Positions 1-15,575 of a stretch of DNA of 17,810 nt are shown here, piece by piece. The translations under genes and the position numbers were made by a program. Below the pieces are notes generated by a model. That model was given only the letters and a program-made list of their open reading frames with translations. It did no database searches and had not been told where the DNA came from. The stretch is from a virus (Duplodnaviria; Heunggongvirae; Uroviricota; Caudoviricetes). The stretch is taken from IMG/VR virus record IMGVR_UViG_2541047874_000006; one strand, given 5' to 3'. Each line of letters begins with the position of its first letter. Within the stretch, counting starts at the first letter, position 1.

Positions 1-348
1 TTACGAATTACTACGGCGCTGTTGCTTTTCCGCATGTACGCGTTTCACTATCTTATAAATCCATTGCAGCGTCAGATTATATTTCTTCGCTAATTCGGCG
101 TAGTTGCGACCATCGCACTCGCTATAGATTTGGTAGTCACGCTCCGACGCCCGTCCGGAGATCCCTTTCGGGAAATAAATGCTTTGCCCACCCCAGTTAC
201 GCATCATTCGGTCGGCAATGGCAAAGCCCACATTTTCCGCCGATGAGCTGTCGAGATTGATGCTCTCAATCAGAACTTGCGATGCATGAAACGCCAGGTC
301 GTTAATGATCTCCGGTGTCCGGGCCATCTCTTTTGATTTTCGTATCAT
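1..348 (-). CDS. Mor/C-family transcriptional activator (phage middle/late gene activator-like)
   Basis: 115-aa ORF; motif block WGGQSIYFPKG...RD..IY...DGRNYAELAKKY..T...IYKIVKR aligns by eye with the conserved core of phage Mu Mor (GGQ.YIP.G...RD..I...F.GRN..EL...Y......YK..RR), recalled from memory. GGAG lies 7 nt upstream of the ATG at 346-348 (minus strand). Confidence 0.75.
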   Translation of the reverse strand: MIRKSKEMARTPEIINDLAFHASQVLIESINLDSSSAENVGFAIADRMMRNWGGQSIYFPKGISGRASERDYQIYSECDGRNYAELAKKYNLTLQWIYKIVKRVHAEKQQRRSNS

Positions 349-560
349 TTTTCATCTCCATATATCTTGCATCCTGTATAAGACCCGATGCGTGTAAAAC
401 CACGGATATACGCTAAGCAGTTGTCATTACTGCTACTCAATACATTCAACAAACAAATAAACAATCACCAAAAATATAAATTTTTAATATTAATGAACGT
501 CATAAATTCACAAAATAAATATATTGTTTGCGTTATGTTTCTTGTCAACTGGAGTATCAT

Positions 561-588
561 TTTACACGATACTGTATGTGCATACAGT
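561..588 (+). promoter_or_regulatory. Possible sigma70 promoter overlapping the LexA box (-35 TTTACA 561-566, -10 TACAGT 583-588, 16-bp spacer)
   Basis: Hexamer matches by eye; the LexA box overlaps the spacer and -10. An alternative leftward promoter (TGTAAAAT on the minus strand at 559-566) is equally plausible, so direction is uncertain. Confidence 0.25.
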
Positions 589-589
589 A
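570..589. promoter_or_regulatory. Candidate LexA (SOS) box TACTGTATGTGCATACAGTA
   Basis: CTGT-N8-ACAG with perfect 8-9 bp palindromic arms (ATACTGTAT / ATACAGTAT); only the central bases differ from the E. coli consensus TACTGTATATATATACAGTA. Sits in the AT-rich divergent intergenic region between the Mor-like gene and the lysis genes. Confidence 0.55.
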
Positions 590-885
590 TTATTTTTACC
601 TGTAGTGTAAAAAGATCGTTTCCCTCACAGTCGCTGACTTTCTTAAACAAACTTTAAAAATCAAATGACTATGGACTATTCCTACGATTCACCGTCCTCT
701 TTTCCCTGCATAATGACGCGCTTATTCTCCAGGACACCTTTTGCTCTTTTATTAATGGGTGGATTTATTAGCAAGCATGTTCATTTATAGAGGATCTATT
801 TTTTAAAGTTATTTATTAAAGCTTTTTTCATTCTTCACTGGAGGGATCTGGCGACACTAAACGCTCACTTATCAGGAGATATCGT

Positions 886-1173
886 ATGAAAAAAGTCACT
901 TTTCCCCGTCTTTCCGGCTGGCTGGTCGCTTCCGTCGCGCTGTTTGTCGCGATCGGCTGGACATCTTCCGCACAGATCCCGGTTGTCATTTATAAACTAA
1001 GTCTGGTTTCGCTCGCCGCTGTGCTGGGATACTGGCTCGATCGCAGTCTGTTTCCCTGGGCGCGGCCTGACTCATTTTGCCCCTGGGAAGAGGCGCGATG
1101 CTGCGCGGCGGCAATGATTCGTCGGGCTATCATCGTTGCAGCCGTCTGCCTTTCCGTCGCGTTAGGACTTTAG
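886..1173 (+). CDS. Small membrane protein with three predicted transmembrane segments, putative holin/pinholin
   Basis: 95 aa with three hydrophobic stretches (GWLVASVALFVAIGW, VVIYKLSLVSLAAVLGYWL, AIIVAAVCLSVALGL); AGGAG 6 nt upstream of the ATG; sits immediately before the endolysin gene. Function inferred from position and topology only. Confidence 0.4.
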   Translation: MKKVTFPRLSGWLVASVALFVAIGWTSSAQIPVVIYKLSLVSLAAVLGYWLDRSLFPWARPDSFCPWEEARCCAAAMIRRAIIVAAVCLSVALGL

Positions 1174-1175
1174 TG

Positions 1176-1781
1176 ATGCAGGTAAAATTTCTCGCGCTAA
1201 TTACTCTGTTCGCGTTCTTCCCGCTTAACGCATCTGAACCGCCGCGAGCATCTCTGGCATGGCGAAACGAACTGATTCGAACTGCACGGGAAGTCTGGGG
1301 ACTGAACGCCCCGGTGGCAGACTTCGCCGGGCAGTTGCACCAGGAATCAGCCTGGCAGCCAATGGCGCGTTCCCCCGTCGGCGCACAGGGTATGGCGCAA
1401 TTTATGCCTGCCACAGCGACATGGATAAGCCAGTTGTATCCACAGCTACGTGAAAACAAGCCCTATAACCCAACCTGGGCGATTCGCGCATTGGTGCAAT
1501 ATGACCAGCATTTGTGGAAAAACATCTCGGCGAAAAATGGCTGCCAGCGTATGGCGTTTACCCTAAGCGCCTATAACGGTGGTCAGGGATGGGTTAATCG
1601 GGATAAAAAACTGGCCGCATCCAAAGGGTTAGATGCCACCATCTGGTTTGGTCATGTTGAGCACGTCAACGCCGGGCGTAGTGCCGCAAACTGGCGAGAA
1701 AATCGTCACTATCCGAAGATGATCCTCTATCAACATGCCGCCCGCTACTTACTCTGGGGGCAGGCAAGCTGTCTTCACTAA
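1176..1781 (+). CDS. Endolysin, lytic transglycosylase (SLT domain) with N-terminal signal or signal-anchor sequence
   Basis: SLT family motifs QESAW (catalytic Glu context), GAQGMAQFMP and AYNGG; hydrophobic N-terminus MQVKFLALITLFAFFPLNA. Start placed at ATG 1176, 2 nt after the upstream gene stop; the longer ORF-track start at 1077 overlaps the previous gene. Confidence 0.8.
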   Translation: MQVKFLALITLFAFFPLNASEPPRASLAWRNELIRTAREVWGLNAPVADFAGQLHQESAWQPMARSPVGAQGMAQFMPATATWISQLYPQLRENKPYNPTWAIRALVQYDQHLWKNISAKNGCQRMAFTLSAYNGGQGWVNRDKKLAASKGLDATIWFGHVEHVNAGRSAANWRENRHYPKMILYQHAARYLLWGQASCLH

Positions 1782-1792
1782 TCAGAGGGCCG

Positions 1793-2107
1793 ATGAAACT
1801 TAGTATCGATTTTTGGGAAGTGATCTCCCTTATGCTTTCCTTCGTTGGATTAATGTTTGCTGCCGGAAAATTGCTGTTAGCGCAAATTGAAAAAAGACTT
1901 AATGAGCGTTTTGAATCTCTGGAAAACGCGCGCCGGGAATCAGAAACAAGCTGGTCGAAACTGGAAAGAGAATTTCTCGAATTTCGTGCCGAGCTTCCGC
2001 TGCATTATGTCCGCAGAGAAGATTATCTTCGTGGCCAGGCAGTATTAGAAGCAAAGCTGGATGCCTTATATAGCAAAATAGAGCTATTACAACGTGGCAG
2101 CTATTAA
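1793..2107 (+). CDS. Membrane-anchored coiled-coil protein, putative i-spanin (Rz-like)
   Basis: 104 aa, N-terminal TM segment (VISLMLSFVGLMFAAGKLLL) followed by a charged heptad-like region; located directly after the endolysin. No embedded o-spanin lipoprotein ORF was found on inspection. Confidence 0.4.
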   Translation: MKLSIDFWEVISLMLSFVGLMFAAGKLLLAQIEKRLNERFESLENARRESETSWSKLEREFLEFRAELPLHYVRREDYLRGQAVLEAKLDALYSKIELLQRGSY

Positions 2108-2111
2108 ATAC

Positions 2112-2145
2112 ATCCCCACCTTTACATAAGTGTGGGGATTTTTTA
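2112..2145 (+). terminator. Intrinsic terminator after the lysis cassette
   Basis: Stem ATCCCCAC (2112-2119) pairs with GTGGGGAT (2132-2139), followed by TTTTTT (2139-2144), immediately after the stop codon at 2105-2107. Confidence 0.6.
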
Positions 2146-2253
2146 TAGCCATTCAATTTTTTCTCTAAATCACATTAAAAGATTCTTCACCTTCACTGCT
2201 TCAGAATACATTTCAACGATAACGAAGTGAGCAGTAATTAAGGAATACCCTAT

Positions 2254-2709
2254 ATGGAAATTTTATCTGTAATTAATTCTGTTGTGACCAGATTACGTGA
2301 ACAGAATCCCGAAATGGACGTATTTATTTCATCGGTTGATGCCAATAAATATATTCCGCAGACGCAGCAAGTTACAGTGATTATTAATTATAGCGGTTCT
2401 CTATTTGCCATGCCTGAAAGCAGTGATGCCCTCGTGCAACAGCAAACGCTCCGTTTAACTGCCACCGTTATTGTTGGCAAAAATTGTGACGCGTTAAACG
2501 CACTGGATCGCATACGCAGCGCATTGGGGGGGATCCAGCTTCCTGATTGCGAGCGTCTTCTTTGGCTTGAAACAGAAATCAATGCAGGCGAGAGCGGTGG
2601 TTTCTGCCGCTACATCCTGGAAATGGCGACCAGCTCGCTGTTTATCGCGAAACGGGAAAGCACGGACCTTACCCTGCTTACTGAAGTTAATTACGAGGAA
2701 ACTGAATGA
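2254..2709 (+). CDS. Phage tail-associated protein (tail completion/terminator-like, Mu gp37 position)
   Basis: 151-aa ORF that opens the tail operon, with AAGGA upstream; stop overlaps the next start (ATGA). Assignment by position relative to the sheath gene. Confidence 0.45.
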   Translation: MEILSVINSVVTRLREQNPEMDVFISSVDANKYIPQTQQVTVIINYSGSLFAMPESSDALVQQQTLRLTATVIVGKNCDALNALDRIRSALGGIQLPDCERLLWLETEINAGESGGFCRYILEMATSSLFIAKRESTDLTLLTEVNYEETE

Positions 2710-2903
2710 AATACATCTACAACGGCCCGGCAAGCGGCGTCACCCTTGCCGACGGACAAGAAATCTTATTGTGGCCGAACAGTGAAATTGATCTGCCAGA
2801 AGAAAACGAGTGGGTTATGACCATGATTGCCCGCAATCACCTGACTCCTGTCATCACTCAGGAAGAACAAAATAACGGAGAGGAAATTGTACATGGCAGC
2901 TAA
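2706..2903 (+). CDS. Small phage protein upstream of the sheath gene (Mu gp38 position)
   Basis: 65-aa ORF translationally coupled to both neighbours; acidic C-terminus. Function not recognisable from sequence alone. Confidence 0.4.
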   Translation: MKYIYNGPASGVTLADGQEILLWPNSEIDLPEENEWVMTMIARNHLTPVITQEEQNNGEEIVHGS

Positions 2904-4317
2904 TTACCTGCACGGTGTAGAAACCATTGAAATTGAAACCGGTCCGCGCCCGGTTAAAGCGGTAAAATCCGCTGTAATCGCTTTAATCGGTAGTGCACCA
3001 TGCGGTCCGGTAAACAAACCAACATTGTGCCTTTCTGAAAGCGATGCCGCGCAGTTTGGCTCGACTCAGGCTAACTTTACTATCCCGCAGGCGCTGAAGG
3101 CGATTTATGACCACGGCGCCGGTACGGTGGTGGTGATTAACGTACTGGATCCGGCAAAACATGGCTCCAGCATCAGCAATGAGAGTATCACTTTTGATTC
3201 CAACAACCAGGCAAAACTGGCTCATCGTGCGGTGCGCAATGTCGTCCTGAAACCCTCTTCAACATCAGCCACTACGTATAGCAGCGCAGCGTTTCATGTT
3301 GATGAACAAACAGGAATAATCACTCGTGCAGAAACTGAGATCCCTGCCGGAGCGAAAGTTTGCGCCTATTACTCATGGGCCGATCCAACAAAAGTTACCG
3401 CAGCCGATATTATTGGCGCCGTTAATACCGCAGGCGATCGCACGGGGATGAAACTGCTACAGGATACCTATAACCTGTATGGTTTCTACGCCAAAATCCT
3501 GCTTGCTCCCGTTTTCTGTACGCAAAAATCGGTCACCACCGAACTGATTGCTCAGGCGGAAAAACTCGGTGCTATCGCCTACATTGACGCCCCAATCGGT
3601 ACTACATTCCAGCAGGTACTGGCTGGTCGCGGCTCGAAAGGCGCAATCAACTTCAACACCAGTTCTGACCGTGCGCGTTTGTGCTATCCGCACGTCAAAG
3701 TTTATGACGGCTCAACCAACCAGGAAGTTCTCGAACCGCTATCTTCACGCGCTGCCGGACTGCGTGCCAAAGTAGACCTGGAGAAAGGTTTCTGGTGGAG
3801 CAACTCAAACCAGGAAATTCAGGGCATTATCGGTATCGAACGTTCACTTTCCGCAATGGTTGATGACCCGCAAAGTGAAGTGAATCAGCTCAACGAAAAC
3901 GGCATTACCACTGTTTTCAATAGTTACGGCTCTGGTCTGCGTTTATGGGGCAACCGCACTGCGGCATGGCCAACCGTGACCCATATGCGTAACTTTGAAA
4001 ACGTTCGCCGCACGGGTGATGTGATTAACGAGTCGATCCGTTATTTCAGCCAGCAGTATATCGATATGCCGATTAATCAGGCACTAATTGATGCCCTGAC
4101 CGAGTCGGTAAATACCTGGGGCCGTAAGCTGATTGCCGACGGCGCACTGCTTGGCTTTGAGTGCTGGTACGATCCGGCGCGAAATTCACCGACCGAACTC
4201 AGTGCCGGGCATTTATTGCTGAGCTATAAATTCACCCCGCCACCGCCGCTGGAACGTCTGACGTTTGAAACTGAAATTACCTCTGAATATTTAGTCTCTC
4301 TGGAGAGCAATAGCTAA
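2893..4317 (+). CDS. Contractile tail sheath protein
   Basis: About 474 aa with the conserved sheath N-terminus (ANYLHGVETIEIETGPRPV...SAVIALIGSAP) and a C-terminal LRLWGNRT-type segment; start taken as ATG 2893 after GGAGAGGA, not the TTG at 2887 used in the ORF track. Confidence 0.9.
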   Translation: MAANYLHGVETIEIETGPRPVKAVKSAVIALIGSAPCGPVNKPTLCLSESDAAQFGSTQANFTIPQALKAIYDHGAGTVVVINVLDPAKHGSSISNESITFDSNNQAKLAHRAVRNVVLKPSSTSATTYSSAAFHVDEQTGIITRAETEIPAGAKVCAYYSWADPTKVTAADIIGAVNTAGDRTGMKLLQDTYNLYGFYAKILLAPVFCTQKSVTTELIAQAEKLGAIAYIDAPIGTTFQQVLAGRGSKGAINFNTSSDRARLCYPHVKVYDGSTNQEVLEPLSSRAAGLRAKVDLEKGFWWSNSNQEIQGIIGIERSLSAMVDDPQSEVNQLNENGITTVFNSYGSGLRLWGNRTAAWPTVTHMRNFENVRRTGDVINESIRYFSQQYIDMPINQALIDALTESVNTWGRKLIADGALLGFECWYDPARNSPTELSAGHLLLSYKFTPPPPLERLTFETEITSEYLVSLESNS

Positions 4318-4841
4318 TGGCTGGAAAAATTCAAATTAACCGTATTACCAATGCCAATATTTATCTCGATGGTAATAACCTTTTAGGTCGTGCAACCGAA
4401 ATTAAATTACCGGATGTCAGTTTAATTATGCAGGAGCATAAAGCACTGGGCATGGTCGGCAAAATCGAACTCCCGGCAGGTTTCGATAAACTGGAAGGGG
4501 AAATTAAATGGAACTCCTTTTATCAAGACGTCATGCGTAAAACGGCAAACCCGTGGCAGGCGGTAGCATTACAGTGCCGCTCCAGTATTGATTGCTATAA
4601 CTCCCAGGGGAAAGCGAATCAATTAGCGTTAGTCACTCATTTGACTGTCATGTTTAAAAAGAATCCATTGGGAACATTTAAACAGAATGAAAACCCGGAA
4701 TTCAGCAGCGCCTTTGGTTGTACCTATATTAAACAGGTGGTCGATGGTGAAACGCTGCTGGAACTGGATTACCTGGCGAATATTTTCCGCGTTAACGGCG
4801 TGGATCAATTAAGTACCTATCGCAATAACATCGGTGGCTAA
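4317..4841 (+). CDS. Tail tube protein
   Basis: 174 aa immediately after the sheath gene with TAATG stop/start overlap; size and position typical of the tube protein of Mu/P2-type contractile tails. Confidence 0.8.
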   Translation: MAGKIQINRITNANIYLDGNNLLGRATEIKLPDVSLIMQEHKALGMVGKIELPAGFDKLEGEIKWNSFYQDVMRKTANPWQAVALQCRSSIDCYNSQGKANQLALVTHLTVMFKKNPLGTFKQNENPEFSSAFGCTYIKQVVDGETLLELDYLANIFRVNGVDQLSTYRNNIGG

Positions 4842-4891
4842 GTTATTCGGGGCTACGGCCCCGATTTCCGCATGACCAATAAGGATACAAA

Positions 4892-5209
4892 ATGAAAGAA
4901 CATTATACCTTACAGTTCCCGTTTACTTCAGCGGCGGGAGACGTAATTAACACTCTGCAATTACGTCGCCTGAAAGTAAAAGATATGCGCAACGCGCGCC
5001 GGATCAGCGAAAAACCAGAAGAATGGGATGAACCGCTAATGGCTGCAATGACCGGACTGGTGCCAGAAGATTTAGCTGAAATGGATTTGCTGGATTACCA
5101 GGCATTGCAGAAACGATTTCAATCCATGCTTAGCGTGGCTACAGAATCCGCCACTGTTATGGCAAGCGATGGCGTTACTGGCGAGATGGTTTCGCTTTCC
5201 GCCCAGTGA
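4892..5209 (+). CDS. Tail assembly chaperone (P2 gpE / Mu gp41 position)
   Basis: 105-aa acidic protein between tube and tape measure; AAGGA 6 nt upstream; an overlapping alternate frame is open to 5297 (see findings). Confidence 0.65.
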   Translation: MKEHYTLQFPFTSAAGDVINTLQLRRLKVKDMRNARRISEKPEEWDEPLMAAMTGLVPEDLAEMDLLDYQALQKRFQSMLSVATESATVMASDGVTGEMVSLSAQ

Positions 5210-5284
5210 GATAGACGCCCTTACCGTCGATGACTTTAGCAACTGGCTGGATGAAGCCAACGCCCAAATAAAAATCGAATATGA

Positions 5285-5307
5285 CTCGCAGACCTGATGT
5301 CTGCGAG
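5285..5307 (+). other. Stable RNA hairpin (perfect 9-bp stem CTCGCAGAC/GTCTGCGAG, 5-nt loop)
   Basis: Perfect inverted repeat read directly from the sequence; overlaps the stop of the alternate-frame extension and is followed by TTT and, further on, a T8 run at 5344-5351. Confidence 0.5.
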
Positions 5308-5398
5308 TTTCCCAAGCCCGTCAGGTTTATTTCTTCCCTGCCCTTTTTTTTAGAAAAATAACCAGCGGGCCATTATCAATATTTAAAGAGAAACAATT

Positions 5399-7759
5399 TT
5401 GGCCAACGATATTATTACCCAGCTTCAGGCGCGTAATGAGACGTTGACGCAGGCAATAGCCCGTTACGGCTCACTCAACGCCAGAACATTGTTAACTCTC
5501 TCTACTCAGCAAGCGACAGTTATCAAACTAACGCAGCGACTTGCCGATTCCGCTCTCCGCCTGGAGGAAAATAGCCGCAGCCGCGCTAATCTGATGGAGA
5601 AAACCCAAACATTTGCCGGGCAATTTAGCAAAGTATTCAATGTTGAAGCCCCCGACTGGAAGTTGCCGTATGAGTTTCAGGACAATATGGTCAATATGGC
5701 GACCAAAGGTGGGATGAGTGATGCCACTCGCGAGACGCTCAGCCTTAATCTGCGCGACTGGAGTATGGATTTTAACCAGCAGCAGACCACGTTACAGTCC
5801 GCCGCTCTGACCTTAGTTGAAGGCAACATATCGTCTTTGCAGGATCTCAACCGCTATATGCCCGAGATCGCCAAAGCCGCCACCGCCACGCGCGACAGCG
5901 CCGAAACATGGGCGAAAGCCGCGCTCGCGACTCATGATCGACTGAATATTGCCCCGGAAAATTTCCACGCTGCGCAAAACATGATGTACAGCGTTACCAA
6001 AAGCGGTGGGCCTGCCATTGCCGAACAAACGCAGTGGATAGAGAAATTTGCAGGTAAAACCGGCGCTCAGGGTCTGGAAGGTATGGCTGAACTGACCGCC
6101 ACCATGCAGATCGCCATGAAAAACGGTGCCAGCGCCAGTGCAGCGGCGGAGAATTTCGACCATTTTCTACAAACCACATTTTCGAAAAAAACCGATAACT
6201 GGTTCGCCAGCCAGGGCGTCGATCTGCAAGGTTCTCTGCTGGAGCATCAGCAAAACGGTATGGGTGTTAGCGAAGCTATGACTCATATCGTGCAAATGCA
6301 GCTTGAGAAGATGAATCCGGCGATCCTCGATACCTTCAAACGCACCATGCAGATTGAAGATTTATCTGCCCGCAGCAATGCGCTGCAATCGATGGTGACG
6401 CAGTTTAATCTGGGCGAAATGTTCGGCGATGCGCAAACGGTGGAATTCCTGGCCCCTATGCTGGCGAACATGGAAGAGTATCGCCAGCTAAAAGCCTCTG
6501 CCATGCAAGCCACCAGCAAGAATCTGATTGATGCCGACTTTTCTGCGCAAATGGCTTCGCCCATTGAACAGACTAAAGCGTTACAACTGGCGTTAAATGA
6601 TTTATGGCTCAGCATTGGCTTGCAGCTTATGCCGGCGATTGGCGAGCTGGCGCAAAGCCTTGCGCCGGTTATTCGCCAGTTCAGCGCCTGGCTACGCGAA
6701 CACCCGGCACTAGTGCAAAACATTGCGAAAATCGTCGGGGCGATTTGGCTGTTTAACGGTGCGCTGAATGTTTTAAAGCTGGGCGCGAACTTCATCGCCT
6801 CGCCGTTTATTCGTCTGGTCGATATCTTCCTGAAAGTCAGGGCAAGTCTGGCGCTCGGAGGCGCAGCGAGTAAGGTGCTATCGGCGGTTAAGTCATTGGG
6901 TGGCGGCGCAAAATGGCTAACGCAACTGCTTGGTCGTGGCCTGAGCGGAGCATTGAAACTGGTTGGTCGGACCGTTCTCTCACTAGGCCGGGTGCTACTG
7001 ATGAATCCCATTGGTCTGGTCATCACTGCGATTGCGGGCGCGGCTTATCTGATTTATCGCAACTGGGAACCTATCACCAGGTTCTTTTCCGCCATCTGGA
7101 AACGTATTACCACGGCCTTTGACGGTGGCATTGCAGGTATTAGCCGGTTGATTCTCGACTGGTCGCCACTGGGGCTGTTCTACAGCGCCTTTTCCGGTGT
7201 GATGAATTGGTTTGGTGTTGAGATGCCTGCGAGTTTTAGCGAGTTCGGCAGCAATATACTGGGTAGCCTGGCCGACGGCATAATGAATGCTTTCCCCGCT
7301 CTGAAAGGCATTATTGATCAGGTCAAAAACGCCATGCCAGACTGGCTAAAAGCCACAATGGGGATCGGCACAGAAGCATCGGCTGCGACTGTTACAGGCA
7401 CGACTAATACCGCATCAGTCTCCCCCGCGACCGTTGTTCCAGGCGTTGCCGGTGCGCTTTTAACGCCGCCTGTGGGCAAACAACTCGCGCCATCCAGCAA
7501 AACGACAACGCCGTCATCGGCGCCAGTGGCAAAACCCGCGTCGGCCTCTTTACCAGGTAAATCCGTAACCAAACCGGCGACGCTACCCCCCCGTTCCCCA
7601 GGAAAAGTCCAGGTGAATTTTTCGCCACAAATTACCGTGCAGGGTAACGGACAAAACACCACTAAAGACATTCAGAACGTGTTGACGATGAGTAAACGCG
7701 AACTGGAAAGAATGATTAACGACGTAATGGCGCAGCAACAGCGCCGGGGGTATGCCTGA
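5399..7759 (+). CDS. Tail tape measure protein
   Basis: 786 aa, coiled-coil N-terminus, hydrophobic central segments, Pro/Ser/Thr-rich C-terminal region; apparent TTG start at 5399 with AAAGAG upstream; located between chaperone and baseplate genes. Confidence 0.85.
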   Translation: MANDIITQLQARNETLTQAIARYGSLNARTLLTLSTQQATVIKLTQRLADSALRLEENSRSRANLMEKTQTFAGQFSKVFNVEAPDWKLPYEFQDNMVNMATKGGMSDATRETLSLNLRDWSMDFNQQQTTLQSAALTLVEGNISSLQDLNRYMPEIAKAATATRDSAETWAKAALATHDRLNIAPENFHAAQNMMYSVTKSGGPAIAEQTQWIEKFAGKTGAQGLEGMAELTATMQIAMKNGASASAAAENFDHFLQTTFSKKTDNWFASQGVDLQGSLLEHQQNGMGVSEAMTHIVQMQLEKMNPAILDTFKRTMQIEDLSARSNALQSMVTQFNLGEMFGDAQTVEFLAPMLANMEEYRQLKASAMQATSKNLIDADFSAQMASPIEQTKALQLALNDLWLSIGLQLMPAIGELAQSLAPVIRQFSAWLREHPALVQNIAKIVGAIWLFNGALNVLKLGANFIASPFIRLVDIFLKVRASLALGGAASKVLSAVKSLGGGAKWLTQLLGRGLSGALKLVGRTVLSLGRVLLMNPIGLVITAIAGAAYLIYRNWEPITRFFSAIWKRITTAFDGGIAGISRLILDWSPLGLFYSAFSGVMNWFGVEMPASFSEFGSNILGSLADGIMNAFPALKGIIDQVKNAMPDWLKATMGIGTEASAATVTGTTNTASVSPATVVPGVAGALLTPPVGKQLAPSSKTTTPSSAPVAKPASASLPGKSVTKPATLPPRSPGKVQVNFSPQITVQGNGQNTTKDIQNVLTMSKRELERMINDVMAQQQRRGYA

Positions 7760-8712
7760 TGTATGCCGTTTTAGGAGAGATTGAATTTAAGGTTGTCACA
7801 TTCTGGGACGGCTTTAAAAGCACAATGGGCGTGGATTACGCCACACATGCCCGTATTGAAGGCAAACCTGGCGTGCAGTTTATTGGCGATAAGCTGGACA
7901 TGCTGGCGCTGGAATTTTCCCTGCACAGCCAGTTTTGCCAACCCACAACAGAGCTGAATCGACTGCGTGAAGCCATGCTTGCCCACAAAGCAATGGCGCT
8001 GGTGTTTGGCAACGGTGATTATCGCGGCTGGTTTGTAATTACAGAGTTAACCGCCACTCACCAGCACACCGATCCCTGGGGCAATGTCATTGCCCAAAGC
8101 GGAACAATGTCGCTCCAGGAGTATACCGGCGATCCGAAAAACCCACTCCTGCCCCCGGCGATTACCACCCAGGAGCCTAATATTGACGAAAAGGCGAGCG
8201 ATTTTCCGGACAAGGTGGAGTCCTGGTTGGATCAGATATTGAACGCCATTGAAGAAGGTATGCGCAAAGCCAAAGAGATGCTCGATGAACTGGCGCAATC
8301 CATTGAAGATATTAAAAAAACAGTGGCAAAGGTTAAAGCACTGATTAAAGAGGCCAAAGCGTTAAAAGAAAAGTGTGAAAAGATAATTACGTCGTTGAAA
8401 AAGACTATCGATGCCATCGAAACCCTGTTTAAACAGCCGATGGATCTGCAAACGCTGGCAGGATTACCAAAAGCGTTGTCGGCGCAGATTAAAGCATTGC
8501 TGGGTAGCCTGCCGGGTATCCGCGACTGCGCCAAAGACGCCGGGACACTGGTTGACCATGCACAAGAACTGTTTGGCAGCATCACCAGCGCCATCGCCGA
8601 AGCAACTTTCGATAAAGCCACAACGTTGGTTGAGCAGGCGCGTACAACGGTACAGCAAACCACTCCCGCAGTGACTCAGCTCGCTGCCGCGACCATTACG
8701 AGGAGCTGGTAA
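7759..8712 (+). CDS. DNA circularization protein N-like tail protein (Mu gpN family)
   Basis: 317 aa; position after the tape measure with ATGA overlap; coiled-coil C-terminal half. Confidence 0.7.
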   Translation: MYAVLGEIEFKVVTFWDGFKSTMGVDYATHARIEGKPGVQFIGDKLDMLALEFSLHSQFCQPTTELNRLREAMLAHKAMALVFGNGDYRGWFVITELTATHQHTDPWGNVIAQSGTMSLQEYTGDPKNPLLPPAITTQEPNIDEKASDFPDKVESWLDQILNAIEEGMRKAKEMLDELAQSIEDIKKTVAKVKALIKEAKALKEKCEKIITSLKKTIDAIETLFKQPMDLQTLAGLPKALSAQIKALLGSLPGIRDCAKDAGTLVDHAQELFGSITSAIAEATFDKATTLVEQARTTVQQTTPAVTQLAAATITRSW

Positions 8713-8921
8713 TGCGATACCTTGAACATATCACCACCGACGGCGAACGCTGGGATAACCTGGCATGGCATTACTACGGTGATGCACTGGCTTATGAACG
8801 CATTATCGCCGCCAATCCACATGTCGCCATTTATCCGGTACTGCCTGCCGGTATTCAGCTCATTATTCCGGTCATTACCGTCAACAAGACCGTATCGGAG
8901 ATCCCACCATGGCTGAGATAA
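8712..8921 (+). CDS. Tail protein X-like (LysM-like small tail protein)
   Basis: 69 aa; pattern D.L....YYGD.....ERIIAANP......LPAG..L.IP resembles the P2 gpX family as recalled; TAATG overlap with the upstream gene. Confidence 0.65.
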   Translation: MRYLEHITTDGERWDNLAWHYYGDALAYERIIAANPHVAIYPVLPAGIQLIIPVITVNKTVSEIPPWLR

Positions 8922-9949
8922 GCGTAACTGGCGGCGTCTTTGCCACGCTCGCGCCCATTTTTACCCTCTGGTATGGGCATAAAGATATCACTTATGACAT
9001 CACGCCTTATGTCACCAGCATCAGTTACCAGGACAGTATTAAAAACGAGTCGGATACCATCGCGATTACACTGGATGACACCGATGGACGCTGGATAAAA
9101 GAGTGGTATCCCGGCAAAGGCGATACGCTGGCGCTGCACATAGGTTATCAGGGGGAAAAACTGCTCGATTGTGGTCAATATATCATTGATAAAATTGACA
9201 TTTCAGCACCACCTTCCACGGTAAATATTGATGGCATCGCCACTTCCGTCAATCAGGCGCTGCGCACCCGTAACAGTCAGGGCTTTGAAGAGACAACGCT
9301 TTCAGCCATCGCCAGCCGTATCGCGCAAACTCACGGCCTGACGCTGGTGGGCAAAATCGAGCCGCTGACGATTGACCGGGTGACACAGTACGGCGAAACC
9401 GATGTCGGATTTCTCAAGCGCCTGGCCAGCGAATATGGCTATGCGGTAAAGGTGACCACCAAAGAACTGATTTTTTCGCATTTACCCACGCTGCGCTGCC
9501 TGGCGCCGGTGAAAAAGATCGACCGCAAAGACGTTTCGCATTTCACCTTCAAAGATACCATTAACCGCATCTACAAAAACGCCACCGTACAGCATCAAAA
9601 TAGTAAGAAAAAAGAACTGGTTATCTACACTCACGACAGCCAGAAAAAGCCGTCTGCCCGTGGAGTCGGCACCAGTGCCGACACGCTGAAACTGAACAGT
9701 CGGGCGCCGGACGTTGGCGCGGCGCAGGCAAAGGCCAACGCCGCGCTCGACAGCCACAACGAATATCAACAAACCGGAACGCTCAGGATGATGGGCTGCC
9801 CGGAACTGACGGCAGGCAATAAAATCGAGCTAACCGATTTTGGTGTACTTTCCGGTCAGTGGCTGATTGATAAATCGACTCACAGTTTTGTGCGCAGCGG
9901 CTATATCACTGAAATCGACATTTCACGCGGGCCAGCAACCAGCCAGTAA
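8909..9949 (+). CDS. Baseplate hub protein (P2 gpD / Mu gpP-like)
   Basis: 346 aa at the position of Mu P / P2 D; overlaps the upstream gene by 13 nt. Confidence 0.75.
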   Translation: MAEISVTGGVFATLAPIFTLWYGHKDITYDITPYVTSISYQDSIKNESDTIAITLDDTDGRWIKEWYPGKGDTLALHIGYQGEKLLDCGQYIIDKIDISAPPSTVNIDGIATSVNQALRTRNSQGFEETTLSAIASRIAQTHGLTLVGKIEPLTIDRVTQYGETDVGFLKRLASEYGYAVKVTTKELIFSHLPTLRCLAPVKKIDRKDVSHFTFKDTINRIYKNATVQHQNSKKKELVIYTHDSQKKPSARGVGTSADTLKLNSRAPDVGAAQAKANAALDSHNEYQQTGTLRMMGCPELTAGNKIELTDFGVLSGQWLIDKSTHSFVRSGYITEIDISRGPATSQ

Positions 9950-9958
9950 GGAGGCAAT

Positions 9959-10660
9959 ATGAAAGGAGTAACCCGGCAAACGGGGATTATCAGCGATATT
10001 GACGAAACCAGCGTTCGGGTGCGGGTCACGCTACCAGAGTGTGACAATCTGAAGAGTAACTGGCTTGCGGTGCTGCAGCGCAATTCTCAGGACAATAAGG
10101 ATTACTGGCTACCGGATATGGGCGAACAGGTGGAAGTTCTGCTGGATGATAACGGTGAAGATGGCGTGGTGCTGGGCGCAGTATATTCAACGGTAGACAC
10201 TGCGCCAGTAGCATCGCGCGACAAACGCTATGTCCAGTTTTCTGATGGCGCAGCGTTTGAATATGACCGCAGCACCCACCAGCTTACGATTAATGGTGGC
10301 ATCGAAAAAATCGTGATTGAGGTTATTGACCGTACCAGCCTGACATCGCCCAACGTTGAGGTTAAAGCCCAACACGTCACCGTGACTTCCGACACTGTTG
10401 ATGTGAAAGCCACCGATGTCAGCATTGAAGCCAGTAAGGTCGATGTTAAAGCGGCAGCAGTGACGGTAGATGCGCCCATGAGCACCTTTACCGGCAACGT
10501 CACGGTGATGAAAAAACTCACCTGGCTTGGTGGCATGGCAGGAAGTGGAGGCATCGGCAACGCCGCCACGATAACCGGCAATGTCAACGTGATTGGTAAC
10601 GTTCAGGCCAGCGGCACATTGCAGGACAGCGGTGGCAACTCCAACCACCATTCACACTGA
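9959..10660 (+). CDS. Baseplate spike/assembly protein V-like (Mu gp45 family)
   Basis: 233 aa; N-terminal region with the GEQVEVLLDDNGEDGVVLGAVY motif typical of gpV-type spikes, then repeated V.VKA..V.V strands suggesting a beta-helix. Confidence 0.75.
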   Translation: MKGVTRQTGIISDIDETSVRVRVTLPECDNLKSNWLAVLQRNSQDNKDYWLPDMGEQVEVLLDDNGEDGVVLGAVYSTVDTAPVASRDKRYVQFSDGAAFEYDRSTHQLTINGGIEKIVIEVIDRTSLTSPNVEVKAQHVTVTSDTVDVKATDVSIEASKVDVKAAAVTVDAPMSTFTGNVTVMKKLTWLGGMAGSGGIGNAATITGNVNVIGNVQASGTLQDSGGNSNHHSH

Positions 10661-10665
10661 CGTTT

Positions 10666-10695
10666 AACCCGCCTGATGGCGGGTTTTCTCTTTTT
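10666..10695 (+). terminator. Intrinsic terminator-like hairpin inside the baseplate gene block
   Basis: AACCCGCC (10666-10673), loop TGAT, GGCGGGTT (10678-10685), then TTCTCTTTTT; lies in the 98-bp gap between the spike gene and the wedge gene. Confidence 0.5.
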
Positions 10696-10758
10696 AATCA
10701 ATCAGTTTTCTAAATCGCTTTAATATCCCCGCCGCCTGTTCAGGGCGAAAATACCCTC

Positions 10759-11118
10759 ATGAACACGAAAACACGCCCCTCTACGCTGCACTGGCAACCC
10801 GCCTTGCAGCGGCCTGAAGAATACGTCTGCGGACTGGATGATATTCACCAGGCAATACACATCATTCTGCGCACACCGCGCGGCAGTGATCCCCACAGAC
10901 CGCTGTTTGGCAGCAACTTGTGGCACTACATCGATTATCCCATCGAGCGGGCGATCCCGCATGTGGTAAGGGAGTCGGTAGAGGCCATCCGCCAGTGGGA
11001 ACCGCGCTGCCGGTTGCTGAAGGTGACACCGGTAATCGACGGGGAACATCTGACGTTACGTGTGCAATGGCGCGCCGCTGACGGCGTAATCAACTCAACG
11101 GAGGTGTTATGGCGATAG
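10759..11118 (+). CDS. Baseplate wedge protein, GPW/gp25 family
   Basis: 119 aa with the conserved segment GLDDIHQAIHIILRTPRGSDPHRPLFGSNLWHYID typical of P2 gpW / T4 gp25-like proteins. Confidence 0.8.
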   Translation: MNTKTRPSTLHWQPALQRPEEYVCGLDDIHQAIHIILRTPRGSDPHRPLFGSNLWHYIDYPIERAIPHVVRESVEAIRQWEPRCRLLKVTPVIDGEHLTLRVQWRAADGVINSTEVLWR

Positions 11119-12224
11119 CCGAACCCGATTTTATTGACCGCGATCCTGCGCAAATTACCAGCGAGATGATTGCGCAGTACGAAGATGCCAGCGGCAAAAA
11201 GCTCTACCCGGCACAGGCCGAGCGGTTGCTGATTGACCTTTTTGCCTATCGTGAAAACCTTGTACGCATCGCCATTCAGGAAGTGGCGAAACAGAATCTG
11301 GTCGCGTATTCCCGCGCGCCAATGCTGGATTATTTAGGTGAGCTGGTGGGCGTTCACCGCTTACCTGCACAACCGGCAAAAACCACGTTGCAGTTTTCGG
11401 TAGCCAGTAAGAATCGAAATAACATTCTAATTCCACAAGGAACACGTGCCAGCGCCTCTGACAGCGTGATGTTTGCTACCGATGAAGATGTTCTGATTCC
11501 GGCGGGAAGTTTGCATATAGCCGTTCCCGCCACCAGTCTGGCAACAGGCGAAGCGGGCAATGGCTGGCAGCCTGCACAGATTAGCGCCCTTGTTGACAGG
11601 ATTGGTTATTACGATATCAGCGTGACCAACCTGACGGCCTCAACCGGCGGCTGCGGTGAAGAGAGCGATGACGCACTACGCCAGCGGATCCAACTGGCGC
11701 CGGAAAGTTTCAGCAATGCGGGCAGCTATGGTGCCTACCGCTTTCATACGCTTTCCGTAAGCCAGTCGATTATTGACGTCGCGGTACTGGGGCCGGACGA
11801 AGGATTGCCAGAAGGCTGCGTGGAGATCTACCCGCTAACGCTGAATGGTCTGCCGGGCGTGGAACTGCTCGCGCAAATTGAACTGGAGGTTAGCAAGGAG
11901 AAAAAACGTCCGCTGACCGACAAAGTAAGTGCGAAATGCGCCGTTAGGGTGCCGTATGAAATCCGTGCGCAGCTCACACTGTTTACCACTGCCGATCAGG
12001 AGACAACGCTGGCTGCGGCGCGTAAAGCGATTAGCCTCTGGACGCAACAGCGGCAGAAACATCTGGGACAGGACATTGTGCCAAACCAGATAATCAAAGT
12101 GTTACAAGTCGATGGTGTCTATGACGTTGCGCTGAATATACCTACAAAACGTATTTTGCAGGCGCATGAGTGGGCGGAATGCACCGCGATAGACGTCACG
12201 ATTGCCGGAGTCAGCGATGGATAA
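11109..12224 (+). CDS. Baseplate J-like protein (Mu gp47 / P2 gpJ family)
   Basis: 371 aa; GGAGG upstream; position and size match baseplate J; overlaps both neighbours. Confidence 0.8.
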   Translation: MAIAEPDFIDRDPAQITSEMIAQYEDASGKKLYPAQAERLLIDLFAYRENLVRIAIQEVAKQNLVAYSRAPMLDYLGELVGVHRLPAQPAKTTLQFSVASKNRNNILIPQGTRASASDSVMFATDEDVLIPAGSLHIAVPATSLATGEAGNGWQPAQISALVDRIGYYDISVTNLTASTGGCGEESDDALRQRIQLAPESFSNAGSYGAYRFHTLSVSQSIIDVAVLGPDEGLPEGCVEIYPLTLNGLPGVELLAQIELEVSKEKKRPLTDKVSAKCAVRVPYEIRAQLTLFTTADQETTLAAARKAISLWTQQRQKHLGQDIVPNQIIKVLQVDGVYDVALNIPTKRILQAHEWAECTAIDVTIAGVSDG

Positions 12225-12582
12225 ATTGCTGCCGCCACCGCCGCTTGCCAGCGATGAGCGTTTTTCAACTCTGGCAAATATCGCTGCCGAGCGTTTTGCC
12301 CAACTCGATCTGACAGCGTTGATGGTTTATCTGGTAGACCTGGTTGATGCTTCGGCATTACCTGCCCTTGCAGAACAATTTCACGTTCAGGGGCTGGAAG
12401 GTTGGTTATTTACCACTGATGAACGGGAGAAGCGCGATTTAATTAAGCAAGCCATTGAGCTGCATAAATATAAAGGAACGATTTGGGCGGTACGGCGGGT
12501 GCTGGAAATACTTTCGCTACCAGGAACTATTTCAGAATGGTTTGAATATGGGGGGAAGGCTTATTTTTTAAGGTTGATATAG
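12202..12582 (+). pseudogene. Tail protein I-like (Mu gp48 / P2 gpI family), N-terminal part; frame discontinuity at a G6 run
   Basis: Probable start ATG 12217 (MDKLLPPPPLA, GGAG upstream). The frame ends at 12582 while the -1 frame is open from 12546 and continues as the next ORF. Possible frameshifted gene or two genes. Confidence 0.5.
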
Positions 12583-12587
12583 AGCTG

Positions 12588-12848
12588 GTGGATAAAGGCA
12601 TGGATGAAAACCTTTTCAATAATCTGGTAGAACTCATTCATGAATATAAAAACACACGTTCAAAACTGGAAGCATTAATTGTCTGGATCATTAACCAAAG
12701 TGCTATTCCTGTTATTGGCTGTGCACTTTATGGTGGTGAACTGACGACGGTTTTACCTTTCCAGATACGGGAAGTACAGCAAAACACATCAATCTATTAC
12801 GGAACAGGGCAATGGAGCCTTGAAATTACATCTATTTACCCGGAGTAA
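12588..12848 (+). CDS. Hypothetical protein, or C-terminal portion of the tail protein I-like gene
   Basis: 86-aa ORF in the -1 frame relative to the preceding gene; lower GC by eye; stop lies inside the RBS-ATG spacer of the tail fiber gene. Confidence 0.4.
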   Translation: MDKGMDENLFNNLVELIHEYKNTRSKLEALIVWIINQSAIPVIGCALYGGELTTVLPFQIREVQQNTSIYYGTGQWSLEITSIYPE

Positions 12849-12850
12849 TT

Positions 12851-14620
12851 ATGGATAATGAGTTTTATACTCTACTCACCGACAGAGGGATGGCAAAAAT
12901 TGCCAATGCTCTGGCGGATAAAAAACAGCTTCATCTACAAAAAATGGCTGTTGGCGACAGCGGAGGGCAATATTATGAACCCACCGTCCGCCAAACTAAA
13001 TTACGTCATGAAGTATGGCGTGGTGATTTAAATACATTAACAGTTGCGCCCAATAATCCTAACTGGTTAATTGCGGAACTTGTACTGCCCGAAAATATCG
13101 GCGGCTGGTATGTACGTGAAGTCGGCGTTTTTGATACTGACGGTGAACTCATTGCTATCGGTAAATTCCCGGAGTCGTATAAACCGCTATTACCCGGCGG
13201 CAGCGGTAAGCAAGTTTGCATTCGTCTCATTATGGAAGTTTCCAATACGACAGCGGTAACACTCACCGTTGACCCCAGTATTGTGCTGGCAACACGGGAT
13301 TATGTTGATTCGCAACTGGATGAACATGAACGTTCGACTAATCACCCTGATGCTACGTTATCGCAAAAAGGCTTTACGCAGTTAAGTAACGCCACTGACA
13401 GTGATGACGAAACCAAAGCGGCTACGCCAAAAGCGGTGAAAGCGGCGATGATTGAGGCACGAAATCATCGTCATACCTGGAGTCAGATTACTGATATTCC
13501 GGATAGTACGCTGACGCAAAAAGGGATTGTGAAGCTTAGTAACGCGATTGATAGCACCAGCACGACAGAGGCGGCAACACCGAGCGCGGTGAAGGCGGCG
13601 TATGACCTGGCGAATAGTAAGGCTGCGGGAAACCATACTCACCCATGGGGACAGATTACGGGTGTTCCAGACGGCACCCTGTCGCAAAAAGGGATTGTGA
13701 AGCTTAATAATGCGACGGATAGCAACAGTACGACGGAGGCGGCTACGCCGAGTGCGGTGAAAGCGGCGTATGACCTGGCAAATGGAAAGGCTGCAGGTAG
13801 TCATACGCACCCCTGGGGGCAGATTACGGGTATTCCGGATGGCACCCTGACGCAAAAAGGGATTGTGAAGCTTAGTAATGCGACGGATAGCAACAGTACG
13901 ACGGAGGCGGCTACGCCAAGTGCGGTGAAGGCGGCGTATGATAAAGCCTGTGAGGCATATAGCAGGATTAACAATTCCTCATTCCGCTTCTATACATCAA
14001 ATGGAACATTTACCGTGCCGACTGGAGTAACAGAAATACTTCTGGAAATGTCAGGCGGTGGTGGGGGCGGTGGTGGTGGGGCAATCGCCGGAGGCTCGAC
14101 AGTGGTACAACCTAAATTTGGACTAGGCGGCGGAGCAGGAAAACCTGGTGAAATTATAATTACTCCTCTCACAGTTAAACCCGGAGATATGTACTCCTTT
14201 ACAGTTGGGGCTGGAGGGGCTGGAGGGGCTGGAGGCACACAGGTAAGACCAGAGAGTGGTTCGACTTGGATTCCCAGAGATGAATTAGGACAAGCAGGTA
14301 TTCCTGGAGCGGCATCATATTTTTCCTCACTTACTGCTTCCGGTGGTGCTGGTGGGGAAGGAGGGAAAATAATAATTATCGACTCCCCGTACGCCAACTC
14401 AGTAGGAGAGGTTCCCAAAACATACTCCAGCAACGGTGAAACTGCAGTAAATACTCCTTATGGAAAAGGGGGATTGGGAGGAGCGAATAGTGATGGCCAA
14501 TCCGGCTCTGGTTATGGTGCGGGAGGTGGGGGAGGGGCTGGTTTAGGATCAACTTCGATAAACCACGCTGCCCGCAATGGCGGTCGTGGCTTGGGTGGTT
14601 ATATAAAAATTTTATGGTGA
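12851..14620 (+). CDS. Tail fiber protein with internal tandem repeats and a glycine-rich C-terminal domain
   Basis: 589 aa; N-terminus (MAVGDSGG...EVWRGDL...LIAELVLPENIGGWYVREVGVFD...FPESYKP) matches the conserved N-terminal domain of Mu S / P2 H / E. coli Stf fibers; four repeats of TL(S/T)QKGIVKLSNATDS..TTEAATPSAVKAAYD; C-terminal 190 aa rich in Gly runs. Confidence 0.85.
   Translation: MDNEFYTLLTDRGMAKIANALADKKQLHLQKMAVGDSGGQYYEPTVRQTKLRHEVWRGDLNTLTVAPNNPNWLIAELVLPENIGGWYVREVGVFDTDGELIAIGKFPESYKPLLPGGSGKQVCIRLIMEVSNTTAVTLTVDPSIVLATRDYVDSQLDEHERSTNHPDATLSQKGFTQLSNATDSDDETKAATPKAVKAAMIEARNHRHTWSQITDIPDSTLTQKGIVKLSNAIDSTSTTEAATPSAVKAAYDLANSKAAGNHTHPWGQITGVPDGTLSQKGIVKLNNATDSNSTTEAATPSAVKAAYDLANGKAAGSHTHPWGQITGIPDGTLTQKGIVKLSNATDSNSTTEAATPSAVKAAYDKACEAYSRINNSSFRFYTSNGTFTVPTGVTEILLEMSGGGGGGGGGAIAGGSTVVQPKFGLGGGAGKPGEIIITPLTVKPGDMYSFTVGAGGAGGAGGTQVRPESGSTWIPRDELGQAGIPGAASYFSSLTASGGAGGEGGKIIIIDSPYANSVGEVPKTYSSNGETAVNTPYGKGGLGGANSDGQSGSGYGAGGGGGAGLGSTSINHAARNGGRGLGGYIKILW
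13340..13960 (+). repeat. Four tandem coding repeats (153-168 bp period) inside the tail fiber gene
   Basis: CGCAAAAAG occurs at 13362, 13515, 13683 and 13851; copies 3 and 4 are nearly identical at the nucleotide level. Confidence 0.7.
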
Positions 14621-14624
14621 ACAG

Positions 14625-15230
14625 ATGACACGATATGCGTATTACCATCCGGTAACCTTTGAGGTTATTGACTGGATAGATGCAGCCTCTTTTACTGTGG
14701 AATTACCTGATTCAGTAATTCCTGTAGATGATGAGCAGTGGCAGTTAAAAGATAAACCATGCTGGATATGTCTTGACCCATTCAAAATTATCACCACACC
14801 ACCGCCGGGTGATTTTTACATCTTAGAGAATGATAAATGGGTATATGACAAAACATTATTTACCATTGCACTTGAGAATACCAAGGCACAGGTTACACAG
14901 GAAATAAAAAATCGACGTGATGAAATAACGGTAGATTACATCATCATCAACAACCATCACTTCCACAGTGATACAAATAGCCGTATCCAACAGCTCTCGC
15001 TCACTAAAATGGGAGCGGAGAAAAAAATCCTTCCAGGTTTAATGTGGAAAACTAAAAATAACGGTCTGATTGAGTTAACCAACGAAATCGCTTCCCAGTT
15101 TGAATCGGTAACAATGGATCACGATATGCGCCTGTTCGCCAACGCCCAGCGCCATATCGCGGCGGTGGAAGCTCTGGACGATATTCAGGCGGTGCTCGAC
15201 TACGACTACTCCACAGGCTGGCAACCATGA
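14625..15230 (+). CDS. Tail fiber assembly protein (Tfa; Mu gpU / P2 gpG family)
   Basis: 201 aa immediately after the tail fiber gene; AT-rich; conserved C-terminal region typical of Tfa chaperones. Confidence 0.75.
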   Translation: MTRYAYYHPVTFEVIDWIDAASFTVELPDSVIPVDDEQWQLKDKPCWICLDPFKIITTPPPGDFYILENDKWVYDKTLFTIALENTKAQVTQEIKNRRDEITVDYIIINNHHFHSDTNSRIQQLSLTKMGAEKKILPGLMWKTKNNGLIELTNEIASQFESVTMDHDMRLFANAQRHIAAVEALDDIQAVLDYDYSTGWQP

Positions 15231-15553
15231 GTAAAACCACTGTCTGGCTCGCTTGTTATAAGGGCCGAACAGAGCACCGTGGTATTGCCCGACTGGCTGA
15301 CTGGCTTACCCGTAAAATCACACGCGGTAGTTATTCCCACTGTGAATTAGCCGTTAAGCATGGTGAAAATAGTTACCTTTGTTACTCTGCATCACTGCGC
15401 GATCGCGGTGTACGCGAAAAGATAATGCCATTGCCAGCGGATAAGTGGGATATGCTGCCGCTCCAGGCCAGCCTTCAGGATGTGGAAACTTTTTTCCGTA
15501 AACATGATGGCAAAAAATATGACTGGCGCGGAGCATTAGGAGAGCCTGTTTAA
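15227..15553 (+). pseudogene. Gene truncated by IS insertion (5' portion; last three codons and stop supplied by the IS end)
   Basis: ATGA overlap with tfa; the ORF runs into the IS terminal repeat, which contributes residues EPV and the stop. The original reading frame resumes after the IS at 16865. Confidence 0.6.
15534..15541. repeat. Target-site duplication CATTAGGA (left copy)
   Basis: Identical 8-mer directly flanks both IS ends (15534-15541 and 16857-16864). Confidence 0.65.
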
Positions 15554-15575
15554 GATTCTGTGTAAATGCCTTTTC

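Follow-up and report, generated by a model that had tools for sequence, protein, structure and literature searches.

The protein I locus and its tail island

In the window, by which we mean the whole 17,810-nucleotide stretch that was analysed, the open reading frame (ORF) that begins at ATG 12217 was read directly as 121 codons ending in TAG at 12580-12582. The frame at -1 to it is closed by a TGA at 12543-12545 and then stays open from 12546 to the TAA at 12846-12848, where it can be called either as an 86-aa ORF (from GTG 12588) or, as gene callers have it, as an 82-aa ORF (from ATG 12600); the two frames overlap by 37 nt. The ORF ends, the overlap, and the position of a run of six G (G6) were all re-read in the sequence, and the frame break described in the original prediction is real. 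A run of six T (T6; TTTTTT, 12564-12569) sits nine bases past G6. The broken gene occupies the position of a tail protein I gene, directly after the gene for baseplate protein J, whose 3' end overlaps its start by 8 nt, and directly before a tail fibre gene. Baseplate_J domains (Pfam) are recorded for the called genes. The order W/gp25, J, I, and tail fibre is shared with the systems of P2 gpI, Mu gp48, and pyocin R2 Tri2, from which the window differs in that its gene is interrupted by a 1-nt deletion. The features are as follows, with A10 standing for Escherichia coli A10 and L numbers for individual loci.

12217..12848, plus strand: whole tail protein I/Tri2-like baseplate wedge gene, predicted to be disrupted; 632 nt, with 633 nt and 210 aa in intact relatives
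12217..12582, plus strand: 5' fragment ORF; by translation, 117 native residues and 4 out-of-frame residues (LRLI), then TAG
12564..12569, plus strand: T6 tract, the lesion; by alignment, one T short of the intact T7
12564..12570, plus strand: in-frame heptamer T_TTT_TTA, a potential -1 slippery site, read from sequence and frame
12550..12555, plus strand: G6 run, not the lesion; the same GGGGGG in the intact A10, L012, L038, and L039-L041
12567..12848, plus strand: 3' fragment in the -1 frame; native residues 118-210 and stop
11109..12224, plus strand: intact baseplate J gene (gp47/Tri1-like), the upstream partner; 371 of 371 residues align to the A10 protein
12851..14620, plus strand: intact tail fibre gene, downstream; 589 of 589 residues align; Pfam Phage_tail_fib and Phage_fiber_2

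In E. coli A10, a tail-only island between lysC and yjbD (L011, 3894-19534) covers the whole window (1-17810). It encodes a Mor-family activator, a holin, a lytic transglycosylase, and a membrane protein, together with Gp37, sheath, tube, tail assembly chaperone, and tape measure proteins; next come a U-like protein, X, D, V, W/gp25, J, and I, and the island ends with a tail fibre, a DUF4376 protein, and a 151-aa protein. Because the A10 copy carries tail and lysis genes with no head, integrase, or replication genes annotated, the island looks like an uncharacterized R-type tailocin-like element. It shares the Mor gene, the lysis cassette, and a full contractile tail module with R-type tailocins derived from P2- or Mu-like tails, such as the R pyocins and the R-syringacin of Pseudomonas syringae (PMC4542187). 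The Salmonella counterpart is the STM4199-STM4203 region. In the literature collection searched, no relevant paper turned up on STM4201 or on this island in the role of a tailocin of E. coli.

Compared with A10, the genes of the window are full length except for I and the last, 151-aa gene. The latter is split by an IS256-family element (15542-16856, 1,315 bp), which encodes a 402-aa Mutator-family transposase on the minus strand and shows terminal inverted repeats (GAGCCTGT.../...ACAGGCTC) and an 8-bp target duplication (CATTAGGA). Since this element is missing from L004, a metagenome contig that carries the T6 allele, the frameshift occurs without the insertion, which is an additional event in the window strain. 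Elsewhere in the cluster, in the region 4892-5297, the gene for the tail assembly chaperone (Phage_TAC_7, 4892-5209) shares sequence with a second ORF, which lies in the +1/-2 frame and is open between 5076 and 5294; the ORF list gives this second ORF no start codon. Such a layout would be expected where long-tailed phages encode their conserved, frameshift-extended chaperone, and the offset of the frames points to a shift of -2 or +1, not of -1. Within the tail fibre gene there are direct repeats at 13476-13941, with a period of about 168 nt and copies that are 86 to 87% identical (self-offset BLAST matches), and several short-read contigs break at these repeats.

A single tail protein I gene with a lesion in a T run

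A chance pattern of ORFs was ruled out, since both fragments match a single 210-aa protein (tblastn E value, 1e-118). Residues 1-120 of the A10 protein align to 12217-12576, and residues 113-210 align to 12552-12845 in the other frame. In the intact protein, the Pfam domain Tail_P2_I (PF09684) spans residues 9-148 and covers the full profile (117.6 bits; E value, 4.9e-34), and the break at 117/118 falls inside it. The 5' fragment scored 91.3 bits (E value, 6.4e-26) over profile positions 2-109 of 139 only. By profile, the 5' fragment, the repaired protein, and the A10 protein all belong to the family, with scores above the curated cut-off of 20.6 bits, but no single frame of the window holds the full-length domain. 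Because the domain is cut at position 109 of 139 and its remainder lies in the -1 frame, the protein I locus is, judged by its sequence, a disrupted member of Tail_P2_I and a predicted pseudogene.

The only solved relative, Tri2 of pyocin R2 (PA0619; PDB 6u5b and 6u5k), was matched with an E value of 1.9e-7 in an alignment that runs across the break (residues 44-153). The protein also matched phrog_48, annotated as "tail protein" (E value, 6e-76), and the 3' fragment matched positions 123-241 of the same family. Another family, phrog_17282 (82 positions, "unknown function"), corresponds exactly to the 82-aa fragment at 12600-12848, that is, residues 129-210 (E value, 2e-56). From this exact match, phrog_17282 appears to have been built from frameshifted protein I fragments and not from a real independent gene.

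The homologs that reach the site come partly from JGI metagenomes and partly from genomes that represent species of Superficieibacter, Dryocola, Phytobacter, and Lelliottia. All but one of the 23 are single ORFs of 209 to 239 aa that read EWFEYGG[KR]AYFFKV across the site; the exception (L025), on a contig with 3x coverage, has an in-frame stop. An intact single ORF of 633 nt and 210 aa is likewise present in E. coli A10 and S10 and in Salmonella Infantis SARB27, where it is the STM4201 homolog. With positions 12150-12900 as the megablast query, the protein I region was found in 195 of 5,426 complete E. coli genomes, always on the chromosome, once per genome, and labelled "phage tail protein I." The best 30 of these 195 matches were 95 to 96% identical and spanned 752 nt against the 751 nt of the query, and among the matches listed, no complete genome exceeded 96% identity to the window allele over 751 nt. 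In the phage collection, only two Salmonella records were recovered, at about 81% identity. The intact alleles lie in the same chromosomal island as the window allele and have the same neighbouring genes; the nucleotide identities to the window are 96% for WP_039720182.1 (A10), 95% for WP_001755399.1 (S10), 99.5% for EFN7881604.1, and 81% for EHB39178.1 (the Salmonella STM4201 homolog). They carry T7 (TTTCTTC in Salmonella) and encode one 210-aa protein, whereas the window carries T6 and encodes products of 121 aa and 82 to 86 aa.

The original prediction had allowed for two genuinely separate genes, and this option is discarded on account of the homolog lengths, the span of the domain, and the PA0619 alignment. 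The homologs run past 12582, and the 86-aa ORF is not an independent gene. Rather, the region is one gene, that of a tail protein I or Tri2-type baseplate wedge protein.

When the window DNA was aligned to its intact relatives, the single gap fell in the T run. The tract reads TTATTTTTTAAGG in the window, TTATTTTTTTAAGG in A10 and S10, and TTATTTCTTCAAAG in Salmonella. TTTTTTT is found in A10, S10, L012, L038, and L039-L041 where the window has TTTTTT, and in the intact gene the tract is read as TAT TTT TTT AAG, encoding Y116, F117, F118, and K119. The G6 run had been proposed as the site of the discontinuity. It was rejected as the lesion because GGGGGG is unchanged in the intact genes, A10 included, and the gap aligns to the T run at 12564-12569. 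One extra G does join the two frames on paper, as had been pointed out, but the resulting fusion (...GGEGLFFKV...) was absent from a 15-billion-protein collection by exact look-up, whereas the T-repaired 210-aa protein (...GGKAYFFKV...) matched EFN7881604.1, "phage tail protein I [Escherichia coli]," exactly. From the alignment, the discontinuity is read as a 1-nt deletion in a T7 tract.

Origin of the T6 allele

The best explanation, and in our judgment a very probable one, is that the gene was split by a genuine, recent, lineage-specific deletion of 1 nt from T7. Replication slippage would have removed one T from the tract in a single E. coli lineage. Past F117, translation would then leave the native frame, add LRLI, and stop at 12580-12582, and the last 93 native residues would be left in the -1 frame. 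Intact alleles that are nearly identical to the window allele exist. In one of them (L038; Logan SRR8145540), which is the DNA of EFN7881604.1, the gene differs by the extra T and two synonymous substitutions; an IMG/VR contig (L039), 99.3% identical to the window, has G6 and T7, as do L040 and L041. The T6 carriers are identical over kilobases, and the 3' fragment shows no extra decay. Given the near-identical T7 alleles, the deletion is taken from these comparisons to be recent and restricted to one clone. The frameshift mutation (pseudogene) that was among the options of the original prediction is supported by the 1-nt T deletion and by the intact single-ORF relatives. The process would be ordinary pseudogenization at a slippage-prone tract, that is, textbook homopolymer slippage with no new mechanism, and the fragment products are already deposited in GenBank.

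It is unlikely, in our assessment, that the gene remains functional, perhaps at a reduced dose, through leaky or programmed recoding, either by a -1 shift on U_UUU_UUA or by RNA polymerase stuttering on T6. A slippery heptamer of the form X_XXY_YYZ is present in the zero frame (T_TTT_TTA, in register with ATG 12217), and the predicted product of a -1 slip (...KAYF(L/F)KVDIEL..., 210 aa) would be almost identical to the intact protein, with F118L or no change. U_UUU_UUA is the shift site of HIV-1 gag-pol, at which E. coli ribosomes can shift at a low rate. The T6 lineage has also been sampled repeatedly, with its other tail genes intact. Nonetheless, the heptamer was itself generated by the deletion, and an intact, near-identical allele exists. 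The two-frame arrangement is not conserved: metagenomes, Salmonella, four further genera, and those complete E. coli genomes that were examined all have the gene as a single ORF. T6 of the same allele occurs at the homologous position only in the 100%-identical clone, and synonymous changes break the tract in many lineages (TTCTTC, TTCTTT, TTTTTC, and TAC-TTTTTT are among the variants). No stimulatory structure was found downstream; the 90 nt at 12571-12660 fold at -13.1 kcal/mol, no better than shuffled sequence (mean, -13.26 kcal/mol; z = 0.06). Moreover, efficient transcriptional slippage usually takes roughly eight to nine or more T, and the tract has six. The window junction resembles the programmed -1 sites of dnaX (A_AAA_AAG), HIV-1 (U_UUU_UUA), and the tail assembly chaperones (G/GT) in that an in-frame heptamer is present and a -1 shift joins the fragments. 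It differs from them in that the site is unconserved, has no downstream structure, and would have been born of a recent deletion from an unshifted gene; programmed frameshift sites are conserved, and both of their products are needed. The programmed slippage that had been offered as one option fails on these grounds. We consider it very unlikely that the T6 allele is kept alive by a -1 shift in a small fraction of translation events, with the cluster tuned down, and that the tract, taken together with the recurrent ±1 alleles described below, roughly sets the dose of a self-lytic, tailocin-like element or turns it on and off.

A sequencing or assembly error in the homopolymer, with T7 as the true state of the genome, had also been put forward. 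Homopolymers are classic sites of error, and the difference is exactly one base in the T run; even so, this reading is highly improbable. The 121-aa product is deposited as EQV89837.1 from E. coli KOEGE 71 (186a) and was found on 18 contigs by exact look-up, and the 82-aa product is deposited as EQV89838.1 ("hypothetical protein") and was found on 19 contigs. The encoding contigs, 21 in all, come from an ENA metagenome assembly, from several Logan runs belonging to different accession series and studies, and from NCBI. Because the identical T6 recurs on contigs from separate runs and projects, random homopolymer error is excluded. Seven of these loci were compared with the window; each has T6 and, over as much as 6.3 kb, is 100% identical. 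T7 was recovered by the same pipelines in other backgrounds, as on the 541 contigs that carry the A10 allele, and in the sequence background of T6 itself, the frameshifted allele is on 18 to 21 contigs and the intact allele is on 1 or 2.

The preferred reading, a deletion at a slippage-prone tract, is accompanied by signs that similar changes recur. Truncated products of ±1 changes in the G and T runs were generated in three allele backgrounds and looked up exactly; the tract lengths listed below are inferred from protein matches only.

A10-type background, T7 to T6: EHP67015.1, E. coli 4_1_47FAA
A10-type background, G6 to G5: one Logan contig
S10-type background, T7 to T6: 11 Logan contigs
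238-aa-type background, T6 to T5: 11 contigs, NCBI and Logan
238-aa-type background, T6 to T7: 6 contigs

Five further hypothetical ±1 variants were absent on exact protein look-up. Two related observations were made in the same data. In the first, a 99-aa ORF (MGEGLFFKVDIEL...) of the A10 type, found on four Logan contigs (P0019), uses the -1 frame in the interval that separates the G run from the T run; it has ATG where the window has TGG and, from the protein, implies a double deletion to G5 and T6. In the second, the 238-aa-type protein I gene on a metagenome contig (L024, 1501-2213; OLPX01000002.1) has an intact T tract and a different frameshift, located toward the 3' end past roughly residue 196, and the protein I gene is hence also broken elsewhere in other strains.

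It is hardly credible that the T tract works as a contingency (phase-variable) site by which tail production is turned off and on: exact ±1 truncated products do occur in the A10-type (EHP67015.1), S10-type, and 238-aa-type backgrounds, but the tract is short (6 to 7 nt) and lacks conservation at the nucleotide level across lineages, and read errors could account for some of the alleles known from Logan only. Neither the shifted S10-type tract nor the shifted 238-aa-type tract had an exact match in complete RefSeq E. coli genomes, where the best matches were 99.3% identical and one base longer, and the 30 complete-genome matches listed for the window allele are likewise all one base longer. 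The coding genes of the tail cluster hold six more 7-nt homopolymers, among them G7 at 2526, A7 at 6185, C7 at 7586, A7 at 8314, and A7 at 15021, which argues that the tract is not special. A contingency locus would have a tract under selection with both lengths common; what draft and Logan sequences showed here was rare ±1 alleles. Indels are to be expected at a homopolymer of 6 to 7 nt, and the T tract is a minor recurrent site of them; we read the recurrence as ordinary mutational bias, perhaps with weak or negative selection on a self-lytic element, and not as phase variation.

Consequences for the tail cluster

In R pyocin structures and P2 genetics, the fibres are borne by a wedge triplex composed of gpI/Tri2 and gpJ/Tri1. 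By homology to PA0619, the intact protein I would putatively form such a triplex with J/Tri1 in the baseplate. The product of the T6 allele would be missing the last quarter of the conserved Tail_P2_I domain along with the entire C-terminal part, and by analogy with P2 gpI and pyocin Tri2, it should not support baseplate assembly. Because this truncated product, which keeps 117 of 210 native residues, should fail to assemble, the lineage probably makes no functional tail particles. Two observations count against inactivation: T_TTT_TTA could still allow some full-length protein to be made, and T6 has been sampled more often than the intact allele, a pattern also expected of a tolerated or favoured allele.

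For annotation, both ORFs should be merged into a single pseudogene entry, a frameshifted "phage tail protein I"; the 82- to 86-aa ORF is wrongly given as "hypothetical protein" in GenBank (EQV89838.1 and EHP67016.1). For the biology of the element, the tail cluster of the T6 E. coli lineage is predicted to be probably unable to build baseplates even with its other tail genes intact, and this is relevant to any trial of the lysC-adjacent tail island as a tailocin.
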